Shown: piece after piece, positions 1 to 4,650 of the stretch | Numbering within the stretch: position 1 is the stretch's first letter | How the letters are laid out: every line of letters starts with the position of its first letter | Source of the DNA: Patescibacteria group bacterium | Lineage (GTDB): Bacteria > Patescibacteriota > Patescibacteriia > Magasanikbacterales > GWA2-37-8 | Length of the DNA: 4,650 nucleotides | Assembly: GCA_004321885.1 (NCBI GenBank) | Contig: SCQK01000012.1 | Location: 1 to 4,650, forward strand | Direction of reading: 5' to 3' | Notes under the pieces: generated by a model | The model's database searches: none | What the model was told of the DNA's origin: nothing | Seen by the model: only the letters and a program-made list of their open reading frames with translations | Position numbers and translations under genes: made by a program

Positions 1-120
1 GATGTTTGATACGTCCCAAACAAAACGTAACAAACCTTGTCCTGATTCACGAACGCGAAAGGTCGAAAAACTTACTTATTGAAACGAGAAAGAGTGTCTT
101 AAAAAAGGGGTACTTGCCAA
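1..120. repeat. Left copy of a perfect 120-bp inverted repeat (terminal inverted repeat of the window); may extend beyond the window edge
   Basis: Bases 1-120 are the exact reverse complement of 4531-4650; I checked all twelve 10-mers by hand. Identity breaks at 121 (g, versus a expected from 4530). By eye the repeat is AT-rich and A-tract-rich and unlike its inner flanks. Confidence 0.95.
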
Positions 121-433
121 GGAGCTCGATGATTCGAGAGTGGAAGTTGGGTGGGGTATTCAGCTTATAGCTTTCGCTCCGCCAACCTCTGACTGGTTCA
201 TCGTGACCAATCTCTCCTGCTCCGCGCAGATCTTTTTTATCCAGCTCGAGACCTGTCTTTGCTTCGTAAAACTCGAGTAGCCAATCGTGCCGGCCGATTT
301 CGTTGTTCCCCACAAGGAGGAGCTCCGAGTCGCCGTCAACGAAGTATAGGAACTTATGGCCGCGATGCTTTGACGGATCGTAAGCGCACACTTCAATATC
401 GCGACCGTCATAGCAAACAAAAAAACGCTTCAT
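47..433 (-). CDS. Hypothetical 128-aa soluble protein; last gene of the murJ operon, translationally coupled. Its C-terminal ~24 aa and stop codon are encoded by the left repeat copy.
   Basis: ATG at 431-433 is preceded by a strong SD: minus-strand UAAGGAGAAAAGCA-AUG, where UAA is the murJ stop and GGAG is 7 nt upstream. The ORF is 128 codons. Codons from about residue 105 onward lie inside the repeat (positions <=120); the stop is at 44-46. No family recognised from the sequence alone. Confidence 0.6.
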   Translation of the reverse strand: MKRFFVCYDGRDIEVCAYDPSKHRGHKFLYFVDGDSELLLVGNNEIGRHDWLLEFYEAKTGLELDKKDLRGAGEIGHDEPVRGWRSESYKLNTPPNFHSRIIELLGKYPFFKTLFLVSISKFFDLSRS

Positions 434-444
434 TGCTTTTCTCC

Positions 445-2091
445 TTACTCATTGTTTGTTATAGCCTCGGTGGTAGGCAGGTTCTTCACCCGCAACCACC
501 GACGGGTCAAGGCGTTTTTGAGCTGTAATAATTCAGGCACCTTTAAGATATAACACAAGAGGCAATAAATTGCCAGACCGGCCAGACCCGCCACCGCTCC
601 TTGTCCGAAAATGCCCCAAAAATACCTTTGGTCAAAAATTTCCGCCAGCGGGTATTTCAAAAATTGCACGGCCAGGGCCATGGGAACGGTCGCGATAATA
701 ATTTTGTAAACGGAGGAGGTGAATGAAAGGGGCTGCTTCGCTTCGCTCGCAGTGACAATAGCGGGTGACCGACTTTTCAGCTCACTTCGCAGGGCCAGCG
801 ACAGGGCGGTGAAGTTTACCACAGCCGCGATGGAAAAGGCCAAAGCCAATCCGGCCACACATAGGGGTTTCATTAAAAGCAAAGAGGCGATGATGCCGAT
901 AAGTTCGGAAATAACGCCAATGACAAACGGGGTTTTGGTATTGGACAAGGCGTAGAAGGCGCGGGCGAGCAGGGGAATGAGCGCCTGGGCGAACAAACTC
1001 AACGCGAACAAAGCCAGGGCGTCGGCTGTGGCAATGGTGGCGGTCCAGTTAAATTCGCCGGTGCCCAGCACCACACGCACGATTTGCGCGCGCAACAGCA
1101 TCATTATTATGGAAAGCGGAACAATCAAAAAAATTATCTGGCGCATGGTGGCCGACAGATTTTTCACGAATTCTACGTGGTCGTTTTTGGCCGCGGCCGC
1201 CGACAGCACGGGAAACACCGCCATGGCAAACGGGATGCCGAAGATGCCGATGGGCACGGCCTGCAAATTGCTCGCGAAATTAAAAATTGCCACACTGCCG
1301 GCCGGCAAAAGCGACGCTAACATGGTGATAATCACCAAGTTAAGTTGGCTGACAGCTAAGCCCATGGTGCGCGGGGCCATCAGCTTGGCCACCGAGAGGG
1401 TATTTTTTTCACGCGGTCTGAAAATCCATTGCCAGCGCCAGCCGTTGGCGTAGGCGCTATACAGTTGAAGCAAAAAATGCATGGCCGCGCCCAAGACCAC
1501 GCCCCAGGCCAAGCCGGAGATGCCGATGGCCGGCACCAAAGCGACCGCGCCCACGATAATCCCCAAGTTGTAAAATATCGGGGCGATGGAGTACATGAAA
1601 AAACTGCGCAGTGATTGTAAGATACCGCCAAGCACCATGGACAGCCCGAGCAAAAAAGTGGAGCCAAACATGATGCGAGTGAAACTTATTACCAGCTCGC
1701 GGCTGAAGCCGTTAAACCCGGGCGCGATAATCGCGGCCAGGGCCGGGGTGAAAATTACACCGAGCGCGCTTAGGGCAAGAAGCGAAACAGCCGTAATGTT
1801 CAAAATGTTATTGGCCAGTTTCCAGGCCGGACTTTTGTCTTCGCCTTCGTGAAAAAGGCGGGTAAAGGTGGGAATAAAGGCGGCGCTAAGCGCGCCCACG
1901 ATGAGCAGGTTATAAATCAGGTCCGGTACTTTGAAAGCGGCGTAGTAGGCGTCCATTATCGGGCCCGCGCCAAAGTAGTGCGCAAAAATACGGTCGCGAA
2001 AAAGGCCGATGAGGCGGCTGATAAGAGTGGTGCCGGCGATAATAATAGCGGCACCGGTGATGGTTTTTGATTGGCCGTTGAGGAATGACAT
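445..2091 (-). CDS. murJ: Lipid II flippase MurJ (MviN), MOP superfamily, about 549 aa
   Basis: Long hydrophobic polytopic ORF. The N-terminal region RLIGLFRDRIFAHYFGAGPIMDAYYAAFKVPDLIYNLL..AFIP matches the conserved MurJ/MviN N-terminus (E. coli [30 protein letters not shown]). Start assigned to ATG 2089-2091 (MSFLNGQ...). The 17-codon upstream extension in the ORF track (to 2142) would translate the structured palindromic element and begins with TTG, so I rejected it. Stop is TAA at 445-447. Confidence 0.9.
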   Translation of the reverse strand: MSFLNGQSKTITGAAIIIAGTTLISRLIGLFRDRIFAHYFGAGPIMDAYYAAFKVPDLIYNLLIVGALSAAFIPTFTRLFHEGEDKSPAWKLANNILNITAVSLLALSALGVIFTPALAAIIAPGFNGFSRELVISFTRIMFGSTFLLGLSMVLGGILQSLRSFFMYSIAPIFYNLGIIVGAVALVPAIGISGLAWGVVLGAAMHFLLQLYSAYANGWRWQWIFRPREKNTLSVAKLMAPRTMGLAVSQLNLVIITMLASLLPAGSVAIFNFASNLQAVPIGIFGIPFAMAVFPVLSAAAAKNDHVEFVKNLSATMRQIIFLIVPLSIIMMLLRAQIVRVVLGTGEFNWTATIATADALALFALSLFAQALIPLLARAFYALSNTKTPFVIGVISELIGIIASLLLMKPLCVAGLALAFSIAAVVNFTALSLALRSELKSRSPAIVTASEAKQPLSFTSSVYKIIIATVPMALAVQFLKYPLAEIFDQRYFWGIFGQGAVAGLAGLAIYCLLCYILKVPELLQLKNALTRRWLRVKNLPTTEAITNNE

Positions 2092-2181
2092 GTCATTGCG
2101 AGGTCGCGTAAGCGACCGAAGCAATCCCATCCGTAATCGCAAGGAATTGCTTCGTCGGCCTACGGCCTCCTCGCAATGACA
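2091..2181 (-). promoter_or_regulatory. Nested-palindrome structured element filling the whole intergenic gap upstream of murJ. Candidates: cis-regulatory RNA or leader structure; REP- or MITE-like palindromic element.
   Basis: Outer 13-bp perfect inverted repeat: TGTCATTGCGAGG (2091-2103) with CCTCGCAATGACA (2169-2181). It encloses three hairpins with 0-2 nt linkers: TCGC-GTAA-GCGA (2104-2115); CGAAGCAAT (2117-2125) with ATTGCTTCG (2146-2154), a 9-bp stem around a 20-nt interior; and GGCC-TAC-GGCC (2157-2167). The upstream gene's stop (TAG, 2182-2184) and the murJ ATG (2089-2091) abut the element directly. Confidence 0.55.
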
Positions 2182-2883
2182 CTACGATGGAGACAAATTC
2201 ACCGTCAGTATGGCCGTGGCCGTGCCTTGTGTGGCTGTTCCCGCGCTACTGGCGAACATGGAGCCGGAAATCTCGTCTTTGCTGAACGAAAATTGTTTGA
2301 CAGTGTCGCTCTCGCTTTCCAAATCAATTTTATAGCCTTTTTTTTGCAGTTCCACTTTGTAGTAGCCGATGACAAAATACGGCTCGGCGTTCATATTCTT
2401 CCATTCTATCTGCACCGTGTCGCGATGGTCGGAAACCGGCGACGCAATCATTTTCCAGATGTTCTTGGCCAGGGCCAGCCGCCCAGCGCCCGCGTCTGTG
2501 GAAGTCGGCGTTAGTTGGTCTTTGTTCATGGCCAAAAATAGGGGAGATAAAATCACTTTTGGAAAAAAGGCCGCGATTTCCACGCCGCGGTTTTTGTATT
2601 TGCCCGAGACAAAAGTGATGCGCTCTATATTGTCTTTGTCGTAAAGAGGAATGTCTTGGGGAAAATTTTCCGGTACGGATTTCAAATTTTGCGGACCGCT
2701 GCCCATGGACAGGCGCAAGACAATCGCGCCGACGATGATGACAATCAAAAGACAACCGCAGCCGCCGAGGCAGGCGCGTTTTATTGAAGAAAAGGCCGAG
2801 TATTTCTTGCTGATTTCTCCAATCGGCGGTTCAACAATTTCCACGTCCTTAATAAGGTCGCGTCGCATAAATACAATTGTCAT
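2182..2883 (-). CDS. Hypothetical single-pass membrane protein (233 aa): short cytoplasmic N-terminus, one TM helix, about 170-aa extracytoplasmic domain. First gene of the murJ operon.
   Basis: ORF of 233 codons with one strongly hydrophobic segment (CLLIVIIVGAIVL) after a K/R-containing N-terminus. The start could be ATG 2881-2883 or the in-frame ATG six codons downstream (2866-2868). No clear SD, and a hairpin overlaps the first ATG. No family recognised. Confidence 0.65.
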   Translation of the reverse strand: MTIVFMRRDLIKDVEIVEPPIGEISKKYSAFSSIKRACLGGCGCLLIVIIVGAIVLRLSMGSGPQNLKSVPENFPQDIPLYDKDNIERITFVSGKYKNRGVEIAAFFPKVILSPLFLAMNKDQLTPTSTDAGAGRLALAKNIWKMIASPVSDHRDTVQIEWKNMNAEPYFVIGYYKVELQKKGYKIDLESESDTVKQFSFSKDEISGSMFASSAGTATQGTATAILTVNLSPS

Positions 2884-2902
2884 CCTGAACTAGTTTCAGG
2901 AT
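2882..2902 (-). promoter_or_regulatory. 8-bp stem hairpin overlapping the first ATG of the 233-aa gene (candidate translational control element)
   Basis: A-TCCTGAA-CTAGT-TTCAGGA-T forms a perfect 8-bp stem with a 5-nt loop. The start codon at 2881-2883 lies at the edge of the stem. Confidence 0.3.
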
Positions 2903-2916
2903 CTCAGGTCGCATTT

Positions 2917-2945
2917 ATTGTAGCATGTTTCCCTCCCCTTGACAA
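2917..2945 (-). promoter_or_regulatory. Sigma70-like promoter for the 233-aa gene and murJ operon (-35 TTGTCA, 17-nt spacer, -10 TACAAT on the minus strand)
   Basis: Plus-strand coordinates: -10 is ATTGTA at 2917-2922 (reverse complement TACAAT). The spacer 2923-2939 is 17 nt. -35 is TGACAA at 2940-2945 (reverse complement TTGTCA). The predicted transcription start near 2910 gives a short leader containing the start-codon hairpin. Confidence 0.4.
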
Positions 2946-2966
2946 AAGTTTTATCCGTGGTATTAT
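2939..2966 (+). promoter_or_regulatory. Strong sigma70-like plus-strand promoter with an extended -10 (TTGACA, 16-nt spacer, TGgTATTAT). It is divergent from the operon promoter, with overlapping -35 elements.
   Basis: TTGACA at 2939-2944 is a perfect -35. TG at 2958-2959 and TATTAT at 2961-2966 form an extended -10. No plus-strand ORF lies downstream; the transcript would be non-coding. Confidence 0.45.
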
Positions 2967-2973
2967 TAGTTTA

Positions 2974-3030
2974 GAAAAAGACTTTCGGCCGTGGTTCATA
3001 TACCACAAACTGGCGGAAAGCCTTTTTTGT
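2974..3030 (+). ncRNA. Candidate small non-coding RNA or 3'UTR-antisense transcript driven by the plus-strand promoter
   Basis: The predicted start is near 2974. Hairpin GTGGT-TCATAT-ACCAC (2991-3006) can be extended by GCC/GGC pairing (2988-2990 with 3012-3014). A short GGC-GGAAA-GCC stem follows, then TTTTTTGTTTT at 3023-3033. The region has no ATG and no ORF. The stems are weak, so termination is uncertain. If the transcript reads through, it is antisense to the 137-aa gene. Confidence 0.25.
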
Positions 3031-3031
3031 T

Positions 3032-3445
3032 TTATTCATCAGGAAATACCGAGATTAGCCATTTCTGATTATTCTTTTTATTTTGTTTGATTTGAACGAG
3101 AAATTTTTCTCTGTCTTTAGTTACGCCGACGAAACGGTGTAATATTTCAGATTTATCGTTCGGGTTATCTTTGGAAATCGGATCAAAGCGGCAATTTTGA
3201 ATTAGTTCAATTGCGCAAGGGTAATATTTCACTCGTCTAATTTTATCTCTGTGATTAAGTTTCGTGTGCAGGTGTTGCCAAAAAAGTTCTAAAAAGATTT
3301 TTTCTTTGTTGAAATACGCCGAACGGATATACGGACGGCGTTTTGTTTTTCTCTTTATTTTTTGGTATTGCGCGAATGCGTGTTTGTAAACTTCGCTGAA
3401 ATTCGTGCCTGACAATTTTGATGATTTGACTTTGTAAACCTCCAT
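3032..3445 (-). CDS. Hypothetical 137-aa lysine/arginine-rich basic protein encoded by AT-rich sequence; function unknown. Possibilities are nucleic-acid binding, a toxin-like protein or a phage-like protein.
   Basis: A 137-codon ORF in AT-rich DNA, where stop codons are expected to be frequent, so it is unlikely to be spurious. There is a single ATG candidate at 3443-3445 with no SD. A putative extended -10 about 10 nt upstream suggests a leaderless or near-leaderless mRNA. No conserved catalytic motif recognised. I looked for an HEPN Rx4-6H motif and found none. Confidence 0.55.
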   Translation of the reverse strand: MEVYKVKSSKLSGTNFSEVYKHAFAQYQKIKRKTKRRPYIRSAYFNKEKIFLELFWQHLHTKLNHRDKIRRVKYYPCAIELIQNCRFDPISKDNPNDKSEILHRFVGVTKDREKFLVQIKQNKKNNQKWLISVFPDE

Positions 3446-3454
3446 AGTGCGGAT

Positions 3455-3463
3455 ATTTTATCA
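3455..3463 (-). promoter_or_regulatory. Extended -10 element (TGATAAAAT on the minus strand) about 10 nt upstream of the 137-aa gene ATG; possible leaderless start
   Basis: Minus strand reads cGTGATAAAATatccgcactATG. The TGnTAAAAT pattern matches an extended -10. The -35 is poor. Confidence 0.3.
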
Positions 3464-3535
3464 CGATAAGGGATAAAATAAAAGATTCGCGGGTTCGCAC
3501 AAAAAAACCGGCGTGAGGTGCTGGTTGCGCAATTT

Positions 3536-4189
3536 TCACGGTTCCGATATTCGCCAGCCAACATTTGGCACTTGTACGAACATCATAGATTCAGATTCGT
3601 CGTCCGCGTAGACCTCGTAGAATCTTGCTTCACCAAGATCCTTGGTTATTTTCATCTCGGCTCGATTGAGCCAGCCAGCAATATCTGCAGTGCCGCCGGC
3701 GGAATGGATGGTTTGGAAAAGTTCGTTGCATCGACGTCGGCTGTCTTGGTCGGGCGCACAGGCCGCTAGCACCAAGTTTAGATCTTGCGCCTGCCAACCG
3801 GCGGCATACAACTTGAACGACTCCTCAGGCGATGCCAATGGAAGCAGTGCGCGTTCTTGTAATTTGGATATCCAGACAAATTTTATTACCCACAAATCTA
3901 ATATTGGGTCAATGTAGGCAGAACGCGGGTTTGCTTTTACTACTTCGGCGCCGTATGGCATTGCCATCAGTTTTGTTTTACCGGCTTCTAAATCAATTGG
4001 ATAACCCGGTGAGGAATATCCGATAACGGAGCCATTGATCCTATCGCGCGTGTCGTTTATAAAAACATAATAATCTGGCATGATTAGGAATATTTTTAAG
4101 ATGCCAATAATTAATAGTATTAAAATTATAAATAGTGTGCTTATTAAAAGTTTTTTGAATCTCCTCATATGACATGAAGTTAACTTCAT
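3536..4189 (-). CDS. Hypothetical 217-aa protein with an N-terminal signal-anchor or TM helix and a C-terminal domain of roughly 170 aa predicted outside the cytoplasm; function unknown
   Basis: ATG at 4187-4189 is preceded by AAGAGGU, 11 nt upstream. An alternative in-frame ATG lies at 4166-4168. The N-terminus MKLTSCHMRRFKK is followed by a hydrophobic stretch of about 25 residues (LLISTLFIILILLIIGILKIFLIM). By eye the gene is GC-mosaic: the anchor region is very AT-rich and the C-terminal domain about half GC. Stop is TGA at 3536-3538. Confidence 0.65.
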   Translation of the reverse strand: MKLTSCHMRRFKKLLISTLFIILILLIIGILKIFLIMPDYYVFINDTRDRINGSVIGYSSPGYPIDLEAGKTKLMAMPYGAEVVKANPRSAYIDPILDLWVIKFVWISKLQERALLPLASPEESFKLYAAGWQAQDLNLVLAACAPDQDSRRRCNELFQTIHSAGGTADIAGWLNRAEMKITKDLGEARFYEVYADDESESMMFVQVPNVGWRISEP

Positions 4190-4224
4190 TCTTAAATTTA
4201 CCTCTTTTGTGGAAATTTGTAAAC

Positions 4225-4245
4225 AAAAAACCGACTGGGTGTCGG
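4225..4245 (-). terminator. Rho-independent terminator on the minus strand (CCGAC-ACCCA-GUCGG followed by UUUUUUGUUU)
   Basis: Plus strand reads AAAAAA (4225-4230), CCGAC (4231-4235), TGGGT (4236-4240), GTCGG (4241-4245). On the minus strand this is a 5-bp GC-rich stem with a 5-nt loop followed directly by six U residues. It sits between the GC-rich fragment and the 217-aa gene. Confidence 0.5.
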
Positions 4246-4354
4246 GGGACCGCCTGTATAGCCATCAGGCTGGCTGCCACAGGACGTGGCGAGGGAAGGT
4301 GCTTACAGCGAGGCGAAGAAGCCGGGCAGGGCCGGCGCTATCTCGCGGGATGAG

Positions 4355-4650
4355 TTAGACCCGCTTTGGGGTTTGGAGCGGCACGCCCACTTCCACAATG
4401 ATGGCACAGTACCACGGATCGAACATCATGATCCGTGTGATGGCCTGTTCCACCTCGGCCCGTTCCATGCCTTCCGCCACCACCTTGCCGAGGCGCACCG
4501 CCATCCAGCGGGATGCCGGGTTGTGTGGCTTTGGCAAGTACCCCTTTTTTAAGACACTCTTTCTCGTTTCAATAAGTAAGTTTTTCGACCTTTCGCGTTC
4601 GTGAATCAGGACAAGGTTTGTTACGTTTTGTTTGGGACGTATCAAACATC
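4355..4650 (-). CDS. 3' portion of a GC-rich gene; product unknown. The frame stays open through the right repeat copy to the window edge. It is either a gene continuing beyond the window or a remnant truncated at the repeat junction.
   Basis: Stop TAA at 4355-4357. The reading frame is open from 4358 to 4650. The first codon in the ORF track is TTG at 4643-4645, which is not a real start. The non-repeat part (4358-4530, ...ASRWMAVRLGKVVAEGMERAEVEQAITRIMMFDPWYCAIIVEVGVPLQTPKRV) looks GC-rich by eye. The repeat part is AT-rich, and there is a sharp compositional break at 4530/4531. Confidence 0.35.
   Translation of the reverse strand, partial: CLIRPKQNVTNLVLIHERERSKNLLIETRKSVLKKGYLPKPHNPASRWMAVRLGKVVAEGMERAEVEQAITRIMMFDPWYCAIIVEVGVPLQTPKRV
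4531..4650. repeat. Right copy of the perfect 120-bp inverted repeat
   Basis: Exact reverse complement of 1-120 (120/120). Identity ends at 4530. Confidence 0.95.

Follow-up and report, generated by a model that had tools for sequence, protein, structure and literature searches.

The 4,650-nt stretch analysed here (positions 1 to 4,650 of the Magasanikbacteria-like Patescibacteria contig SCQK01000012.1; hereafter the window) contains a 91-nt nested palindrome between murJ and an upstream open reading frame (ORF) of 233 aa, and several described repeats resemble it. The CGTC-tagged repetitive extragenic palindromes (REPs; Di Nocera 2013, BMC Genomics 14:522; PMC3733652) carry an unpaired CGTC tag, which is TGTC in many repeats (the tag variants being CGTC, TGTC or CCTC), a stem of 8-9 bp opening with A, T, a loop of 4-5 nt and a short tail, usually CCA. 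They occur mainly as HH (head-to-head) dimers with the tags outside, heterodimers included, whose spacers sometimes contain small stem-loops; they are intergenic, lie near the 3′ ends of ORFs in unidirectional or convergent gaps, include in-frame intragenic copies, span several phyla and have no dedicated transposase (PMC3733652; Di Nocera, De Gregorio & Rocco). In the REPINs, an inverted REP doublet forms one long hairpin with a GTAG tag, and the associated RAYT transposase is of the Y1 (IS200/IS605-like) type (Bertels & Rainey 2011; PMC3116915). Small GIY-YIG genes (ssn, cd10448) lie between copies of the Neisseria NTS (CGTCATTCCCGCGMAVGCGGGAATCYRG) or of related SRM hairpins, and the Ssn products cut these hairpins as single-stranded DNA, with the GTC 5′ of the stem mattering for cutting and the C 3′ of the stem for binding (Chenal et al. 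2025, Nat Commun 16:2388; PMC11893778).

Compared with these systems, the palindrome of the window is probably a non-autonomous dispersed repeat, composed of two inverted TGTC-tagged units with their tags outward, which is not dedicated to murJ and whose coupling effect there would be incidental. It fills the TAG-to-ATG gap between the 233-aa ORF and murJ exactly, and its order in the window is TGTCATTGCGAGG-TCGCGTAAGCGA-C-CGAAGCAAT-(20 nt)-ATTGCTTCG-TC-GGCCTACGGCC-T-CCTCGCAATGACA (Table 1). murJ itself is encoded by the minus strand (Pfam MurJ, E = 1.9e-91). The first-pass annotation of the window had described an outer stem, three hairpins, a 14-bp palindrome at the murJ start and the filling of the gap, and all of these were found in the sequence; the stem had been placed 1 nt after the TAG, and the actual distance is 0 nt.

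Table 1. Features of the window, with palindromic elements at the murJ junction of relatives and units beside ssn genes of other genomes
Feature	Position in window	Strand	Sequence, structure and basis
Whole element	2091..2181		Tags-outward (HH) heterodimer of two inverted TGTC-tagged REP-type units; module parsing, folds, 124 further copies with the same ends (among the matches listed)
Outer stem	2091-2103 x 2169-2181		TGTCATTGCGAGG x CCTCGCAATGACA; sequence
Hairpin 1	2104-2115		TCGC-GTAA-GCGA; sequence
Central hairpin	2117-2125 x 2146-2154		CGAAGCAAT x ATTGCTTCG, 20 nt between; sequence
Hairpin 3	2157-2167		GGCC-TAC-GGCC; sequence
Left unit	2091..2128	plus	Tag TGTC 2091-2094; stem ATTGC 2095-2099 x GCAAT 2121-2125
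Left unit, loop and tail	2100-2120; 2126-2128	plus	Loop GAGG-[TCGC GTAA GCGA C]-CGAA; tail CCC
Spacer between unit tails	2129..2142		14 nt, ATCCGTAATCGCAA; part of the family's variable 'loop', whose length elsewhere is 2-45 nt
Right unit	2143..2181	minus	TGTC 2181-2178; ATTGC 2177-2173; GAGG-[A GGCC GTA GGCC GA]-CGAA; GCAAT 2150-2146; tail TCC
Perfect 14-bp palindrome	2084-2097		AATGACATGTCATT; formed by the element end together with tag-like TGTCATTCC; sequence
Tag-plus-stem-start look-alike	2082..2090 (read 2090 down to 2082)	minus	TGTCATTCC; encodes the first MurJ residues M-S-F
murJ start codon	2089..2091 (ATG 2091..2089)	minus	A is the last base of the element; TG are the first two bases of the third, tag-like TGTCATTCC
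TAG stop of upstream 233-aa ORF (2182-2883)	2182..2184	minus	Directly next to the helix 5′ arm in the mRNA, 0 nt
In-frame REP-type unit in murJ	724..757	minus	TGTC-ACTGC-GAGCGAAGCGAA-GCAGC-CCC; 11-residue insertion VTASEAKQPLS
Single CGTC-2-type REP unit	2878..2905	plus	TGTC-ATCCTGAA-CTAGT-TTCAGGAT-CTC; 8-bp stem, 5-nt loop; unit scan
Promoter-like site	2917..2945	minus	TTGTCA-17-TACAAT, TG-extended; consensus scan only; would drive the 233-aa ORF, the element and murJ in a single mRNA
L141 junction			ATTGC-family element; starts 1 nt after the stop, ends 35 nt short of the ATG
L200 junction			CGTC-1-type dimer TGTCATTCCCGC...GGGAATGACA; starts 1 nt after the stop, ends 10 nt short of the ATG
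L142 and L162 junctions			TGTCATCC-type element
L124-L126 junction (142 nt; three contigs, one identical sequence)			Unrelated palindrome, ~20-bp outer stem CCCAGTAATACAACCCCGTA/TACGGGGTTGATATACTGGG
Unit beside ssn gene, Spirosoma			TGTC-ATCCC-GAGGAACGA-GGGAT-C
Unit beside ssn gene, Planktothrix			TGTC-ATTCT-GAGTGAAACGA-AGAAT-C
Unit beside ssn gene, Mucilaginibacter UYCu711			TGTC-ATTTC-...-GAAAT-C
Unit beside ssn gene, strain KBS0705			TGTC-ATCTC-GAGCGAGCGTAGCGACGA-GAGAT-C

The fold of the element was compared with those of shuffled sequences, and its stability lay far beyond these controls. The RNA folds reached -58.9 kcal/mol for the minus strand, which is the murJ mRNA (z = -8.0), and -48.0 kcal/mol for the plus strand (z = -6.6), with 0 of 200 shuffles as stable in either case; the DNA folds gave z = -9.0 and -6.7. 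The four-helix junction drawn in the first-pass annotation was recovered as the minimum free energy (MFE) structure when the plus strand was folded as RNA and when either strand was folded as DNA; the mRNA strand folds at its MFE into an almost unbroken rod, in which the G of the UAG is predicted to pair with the U of the AUG. The loops had been read as GNRA-type in plus-strand orientation; on the mRNA strand they are UUAC and UAC, the GNRA-like loops lying on the non-coding strand. When the whole window was searched against all Rfam families, no match was obtained at E <= 1.

One genome per species was scanned with the pattern TGTCATTGCGAGG-N40-70-CCTCGCAATGACA, and both 13-mer ends, 40-70 nt apart, were found in at least 120 stretches of genomes belonging to a dozen or more phyla; the counts of copies given below refer to the 125 copies among the matches listed. 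According to the record titles, the phyla include Bacteroidota, Chloroflexota, Patescibacteria, Pseudomonadota, Planctomycetota, Gemmatimonadota, Verrucomicrobiota, Desulfobacterota, Omnitrophota, KSB1 and others, the taxa named being Mucilaginibacter, Flavobacterium, Acetobacteraceae, Burkholderiales, Jettenia and Desulfomonilaceae, and several assemblies had 3-4 separate loci each. The inner arms CGAAGCAATC and GATTGCTTCG, which were not part of the query, were present in 123/125 copies, and the copies therefore represent one homologous family (the ATTGC family). Its elements measured 66-96 nt and occurred in both orientations, and further ends were found inside 49 of the 120 8-kb loci, nested arrays included. 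Most copies (98/125) were intergenic; the median distance was 40 nt to a stop codon versus 116 nt to a start codon, and the gene context was convergent for 24 copies, unidirectional for 45 and divergent for 9. No target-site duplication was detected around the 125 copies at k = 2-8, as 6/125 were seen against ~7.8 expected at k = 2 and 0 at k >= 4.

Copies were also present on plasmids of cultured isolates, namely Methylosinus trichosporium OB3b, Methylocystis, Halomonas, Calothrix and Novosphingobium. A BLAST search with the element copy present in the window gave nothing against plasmids at E <= 0.01 and one Helicobacter canis prophage against phages. The pattern scan of IMG/VR returned 5 contigs only, so phages are not the main carrier. 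A full-text literature search with 12-mers of the element returned unrelated PCR primers only; the ATTGC family, very widespread across phyla, has no description by sequence in the searchable literature.

Parsing of the copies revealed that the repeated module is half of the 91-nt palindrome, not the whole. The unit (~36 nt) consists of the tag TGTC, the stem ATTGC, the loop GAGG-[X]-CGAA, the stem GCAAT and then a C, where X is 2 nt long in Bacteroidota, so that the whole dimer is a plain rod, and 8-24 nt long elsewhere, often with its own hairpin. The loop is accordingly 10 nt long (GAGGAACGAA) in the Bacteroidota copies; in the window it spans 21-22 nt and contains a nested hairpin. The side hairpins of the palindrome are the loop inserts of its two units. 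When folded alone as single-stranded DNA (-10.4 kcal/mol, z = -4.5), the left unit kept its tag unpaired and formed a 5-bp stem and, nested in it, a hairpin; it was recovered by a generic unit scan. The right unit showed the same three features as DNA (-5.3 kcal/mol, z = -0.95); it was missed by the strict unit scan because of its T tail only, as it has a T just 3′ of the stem (window 2145) versus C in the family. Given that the C at this position is reported as the one most critical for SsnA binding in Neisseria, the right unit may be a decayed copy. The commonest unit tails were CTC, CGC and CCC, and those of the window are CCC followed by A on the left and TCC on the right.

The units were found predominantly in pairs, with 262 ends in dimers (~131 dimers) versus 15 ends that have a complete unit but lack a partner (roughly 8-15 lone units). 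Exactly complementary side arms were present in only 41/123 dimers, which indicates that many dimers join unlike units. Inner-arm variants (CGTGGC or CGCGGC for CGAAGC) were seen 54 times, and the partner arm was compensated in 2 of them. The inner 9-bp helix of the first-pass annotation is thus without covariation and results from the head-to-head placement of two related units. A four-way junction as the selected structure was ruled out, the inner-arm variants being uncompensated and the Bacteroidota copies having no side hairpins. Nested 'onion' arrays were also observed (L033 1315-1547 and 5123-5342; L043 23-213), in which several left ends in a row, at ~25-50-nt spacing, are followed by several right ends; this arrangement suggests insertion of one unit into another, or expansion by slippage.

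Several properties of the element agree with those of the CGTC-tagged REPs. The two TGTC tags (2091-2094, and 2181-2178 on the minus strand) are unpaired in the single-unit folds, CGTC-tagged variants of the family occur at other loci, and the Methylosinus copy has both the canonical CGTC tag and the CCA tail. The stem opens with AT, HH dimers dominate with single units present too, and the family is dispersed, intergenic, near ORF 3′ ends and scarce between divergent genes. Heterodimers, in-frame copies within genes and presence in several phyla are further traits in common. The element also resembles a REPIN in that an inverted doublet forms one long hairpin, in that it is non-autonomous with tens to hundreds of copies and no target duplication, and in that a single-copy associated gene is flanked by repeats. 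Unlike a REPIN, it lacks GTAG at either end, and the gene associated with its sister variants is GIY-YIG (PF01541), not Y1_Tnp, although no search was aimed at RAYT genes; moreover, REPIN families are lineage-specific, whereas the sequence of this element is nearly constant across phyla.

The relation to the Ssn nucleases was analyzed by collecting small GIY-YIG homologues, one of which (P0125) was 54% identical to a repeat-flanked Neisseria gonorrhoeae gene, and by inspecting 17 distinct ssn loci. Tagged hairpins were found within ~200 nt of the ssn gene in 17/17 loci. The tags faced outward in 11; the nearest units faced inward in Neisseria (L250) and L227, the tags were degenerate in L226 and L253, and the units were one-sided in L229 and L231. 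The direction is a difference from the published system, since the nearest Neisseria tags face the gene and those of the Patescibacteria and Bacteroidota loci point outward. In four loci (L248, L249, L251 and L252), sister variants of the unit with loop ends identical to those of the ATTGC family bracket cd10448-type ssn genes in the order repeat-gene-repeat (Table 1), and the loop of the KBS0705 unit differs little from the GAGG-AGCGTAGCGA-CGAA seen in many ATTGC-family copies. The three variable stem positions were always compensated across the variants (TGC/GCA, CCC/GGG, TCT/AGA, TTC/GAA and CTC/GAG); the 5-bp unit stems thus show the covariation that the inner helix of the dimer lacks. A generic scan for tag, AT-stem, loop, stem and C gave 83 units in 83 kb of ssn loci versus 1 in shuffles. 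As in the published motif, the left unit (TGTC-ATTGC...GCAAT-C) has GTC 5′ and C 3′ of its hairpin, the right unit having a T at the 3′ position. The element probably belongs to, or is a sister family of, the CGTC/TGTC-tagged REP superfamily whose members flank Ssn genes, and the exact ATTGC family would be handled by an Ssn-type nuclease. A Patescibacteria contig (L212/L213 1929-2312) was also seen to contain a 100-aa Ssn-type GIY-YIG gene between dnaK and dnaJ, bracketed by TGTC-tagged hairpins, with its stop codon within the downstream repeat.

The murJ junction was then compared among relatives, using 54 metagenomic or genomic loci that keep the orthologous upstream gene (closest MurJ, 72-75% identical). 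In 35/54, the stop-to-start distance was -14 to +11 nt, too short to hold the element, which is absent from most orthologous junctions. The gap was longer in 19/54; the junction sequence was read in 12 of these, and palindromes were present in 8 (among them L141, L200, L142, L162 and L124-L126; Table 1), while the other four junctions read (L122, L123, L169 and L192; 25-77 nt) had no such element. The outer stem of the L124-L126 palindrome begins 6 nt past the stop codon and reaches to within 1 nt of the ATG. Because several relatives hold different palindromes there, the murJ junction is one that has been repeatedly invaded by palindromic elements. Unrelated long palindromes were also seen in the murJ-upstream gaps of L145 (244 nt), L176/L177 and L203.

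The 233-aa gene and, after it, murJ make up a conserved operon whose stop-start junction is normally very short; in the window, the repeat would have inserted there, and the murJ start codon would now be formed by the last base of the repeat together with the tag-like TGTCATT. Among the 248 flanks of the copies listed, only 1 started with TGTCAT, namely that of the window itself. The MurJ N-terminus MSFLNGQSK aligns with the ML-KILNGQSK of relatives (MSF- versus MLKI-), and an 'MSF...' N-terminus is likewise produced when the call of an ssn gene is extended into a TGTCATTCC-type REP in front of it. In the public annotation, MurJ (P0001) is called with 559 aa versus 548 aa for the ORF from the ATG; the call starts at a TTG within the repeat (2092-2124, minus), by which the spurious N-terminus LLRSLTRPRND is added. 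Repeats of the ATTGC family regularly yield such false gene-call extensions and small false ORFs.

The local effect on murJ translation was examined by RNA folding. Given the promoter-like site upstream of the 233-aa ORF and the lack of a terminator at the element, the two genes are probably co-transcribed; at 2084-2184, no terminator-like site was found on either strand, there is no U-tract, and the helix is followed by UGUCAUUCCUC. An intrinsic terminator was rejected on these grounds. The first-pass annotation had stated that murJ has no Shine-Dalgarno sequence and its neighbours do; AAGGAG was found before the 128-aa ORF and GAGG before the 217-aa ORF, but none before the 137-aa ORF. In a 166-nt mRNA context, the pair probabilities of the outer stem were ~1.0 and the 13 nt before the AUG were fully paired, so that the mRNA helix would bury them. 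When the footprint of a ribosome terminating at the UAG was masked, the 3′ arm was freed and formed a small hairpin in the MFE fold, with unpaired probabilities at the AUG of 0.99 (A), 0.94 (U) and 0.68 (G). A ribosome terminating at the adjacent UAG would accordingly melt the 5′ arm, and murJ would be translated mainly then. In this model, the likeliest local outcome would be that murJ translation is coupled to that of the upstream gene, a side effect of the site at which the repeat landed.

The first-pass annotation had named as one candidate a structured cis-regulatory RNA controlling flippase synthesis, and had suggested a two-state switch; a riboswitch or a thermosensor would be other RNAs of this kind. 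The very stable fold over the initiation region and the 14-bp palindrome centred on the AUG would suit such an RNA, yet the element is scattered in either orientation over unrelated sites of many phyla, is missing from most orthologous junctions, has no Rfam match and bears GNRA-like loops on the wrong strand for murJ, and its inner-helix variants are compensated in only 2/54. The switch in particular requires the alternative hairpin AAUGA-CAUG-UCAUU, which has -0.5 kcal/mol alone and costs +7.1 kcal/mol versus the MFE when forced; a free-standing two-state switch is therefore not credible, and a dedicated regulator of any kind is extremely improbable. The annotation had also offered a REP/MITE-like insertion element; the dispersal of the copies and their absence from most orthologous murJ junctions support it, and of the two candidates the selfish repeat is the right one. 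A classical miniature inverted-repeat transposable element (MITE), that is, a deletion derivative of an insertion sequence with a DDE transposase mobilised via its terminal inverted repeats, would account for 66-96-nt elements in many copies with perfect terminal inverted repeats opening TG...CA. However, target-site duplications are at or below chance, single half-elements exist, dimers often combine unlike units, and the sister variants bracket a ~100-aa GIY-YIG gene and no transposase, which makes this origin very unlikely. An integron attC site (RYYYAAC ... GTTRRRY) was rejected, as the ends are TGTCATT / AATGACA with no integrase nearby, and a CRISPR repeat was rejected on sequence features.

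Two readings in which the element does useful work at this site deserve more weight. The REP-type repeat could have been exapted, its exact placement being selected, as a regulator that sets the translation ratio of murJ to the upstream gene and opens only if the upstream ORF is translated. Its 5′ arm lies against the UAG and its 3′ arm ends in the AUG, the junctions of relatives are coupled (-14 to +11 nt), so that coupling had to survive the insertion, and the predicted release of the AUG into the loop of the small hairpin would fit. The L141 and L200 elements also begin 1 nt past the stop, but they end short of the ATG by 35 and 10 nt; the complete arrangement is present on one contig only, REPs generally lie near stop codons (in the family data here and in Di Nocera 2013), and no conservation or covariation points to selection. 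We regard exaptation as unlikely. Alternatively, the main role could be at the 3′ end of the upstream message, as a hairpin stabilising or processing the mRNA or as a ribosome-stalling REP that affects the 233-aa gene, not murJ. The helix directly follows the stop codon and the family is biased to gene 3′ ends. In E. coli, REPs reportedly stabilise the upstream mRNA, and those within ~15 nt of the stop are said to reduce translation of the upstream gene. Against such a role, there is no U-tract or terminator, and murJ expression is still needed from the same transcript; it appears quite unlikely.

A dispersed, TGTC-tagged repeat with an incidental coupling effect accounts for the data best, and several observations weigh against it. 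The stem of the element itself is 5 bp (ATTGC/GCAAT) versus the published 8-9, and its loop is at least 10 nt, with the conserved ends GAGG...CGAA and often a nested hairpin, versus 4-5 nt. None of the peptides given for the four published families in Di Nocera (2013) fits the element, the comparison being by peptides and text description. The published SRM pattern (HGTCWYN(0-2)YYVSBRHN(0-5)WNVSBRGN(0-2)RNCYNB), used as a regular expression, matched the Neisseria NTS but 0/4 versions of the element unit and nothing in the window. No GIY-YIG/ssn gene was detected in 0.89 Mb around the 125 copies, either by regular expression or by a hidden Markov model from 120 Ssn homologues. No ssn gene bracketed by the exact ATTGC (ATTGCGAGG) type was found, three targeted Bacteroidota look-ups giving sister variants only, and the source genome is represented by 4.6 kb only. 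A sequence kept over 13 + 10 nt from phylum to phylum is unusual among REPs, and the flush fit to both codons, repeated at the stop in L141 and L200, could mean a selected function; the coupling model, for its part, is a thermodynamic calculation only. As the unit departs from the SRM pattern and from the stem and loop dimensions in the literature, and no ATTGC-bracketed ssn gene was found, the element was filed as a new family of a known kind. The N- or C-terminal extensions found in ssn gene calls were of CGTC-1 type only (for example MSFPRKRES and VIPAEAGIQ), none being a translation of an ATTGC unit.

A broader interpretation, which we hold to be rather doubtful, is that REP doublets are tolerated in, or recruited to, the tight stop-start operon junctions in the small genomes of the candidate phyla radiation (CPR), and that the ATTGC family marks a new Ssn branch. 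The ends A + TGTC... / ...ATGACA would carry a ready-made start codon, and a flush helix would restore coupling over 90 nt, the ribosome unzipping the 5′ arm and the 3′ arm showing the AUG in a hairpin loop. Several such elements would have entered the same junction independently in related lineages, and the ATTGC family, missed by the published SRM searches, would mark an uncharted branch of Ssn specificity reaching Patescibacteria.

Two further REP-type units are present in the window (Table 1). The in-frame unit in murJ has a 13-mer that matches the element end with 2 mismatches, and the VTASEAKQPLS insertion was absent from 6/6 aligned MurJ relatives (72-75% identity). The Rickettsia palindromic elements, as discussed in Di Nocera (2013), are comparable in that a palindromic unit lies in frame within an essential gene without destroying it, here as 11 residues in a loop region of MurJ; they differ in sequence family and host phylum, and the inserted MurJ peptide is predicted from sequence. 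The single unit at the start of the upstream ORF folded as DNA at -6.1 kcal/mol (z = -3.3) and fits the CGTC-2 description and the peptide RHSELVSGS in the same source (PMC3733652). It lies between the minus-strand promoter-like site and the upstream ORF, and its tag region supplies the first ATG (2883..2881); the public gene call of this ORF uses the second ATG, giving 228 aa versus 233.

On the plus strand, a strong promoter-like site was seen in 2939-3030 (TTGACA-16-TATTAT with TG, 11/12), followed near 2980-3030 by the hairpin GACTTTCGGCC...GGCGGAAAGCC and a T-run, which may act as bidirectional terminator of the 137-aa ORF or represent a short transcript. The ends of the window (1-120 and 4531-4650) form a perfect 120-nt inverted repeat, a public Logan contig with the same sequence spans only 91-4228, and the GC content is 0.60 at 4201-4500 versus 0.35-0.41 in the adjoining stretches. 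The terminal inverted repeat resembles an assembly fold-back or a chimera more than a genuine feature.

With these results, a tempting false positive is removed: the very stable structure that fits so exactly before murJ, an essential cell-wall gene, is a copy of a mobile-looking repeat. The ends of the family are almost invariant over a dozen or more phyla, and its units follow the tag, stem and tail logic of the Ssn-associated REPs, yet it was missed by the published pattern; motif counts and the range of Ssn specificities are therefore probably underestimated. Patescibacteria, their tiny genomes notwithstanding, hold both these repeats and small GIY-YIG genes: one such gene is placed between dnaK and dnaJ, one repeat unit is in frame within MurJ, and other units occur at operon junctions. 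The murJ locus is a clean natural test case of how a 90-nt helix between coupled genes is tolerated.

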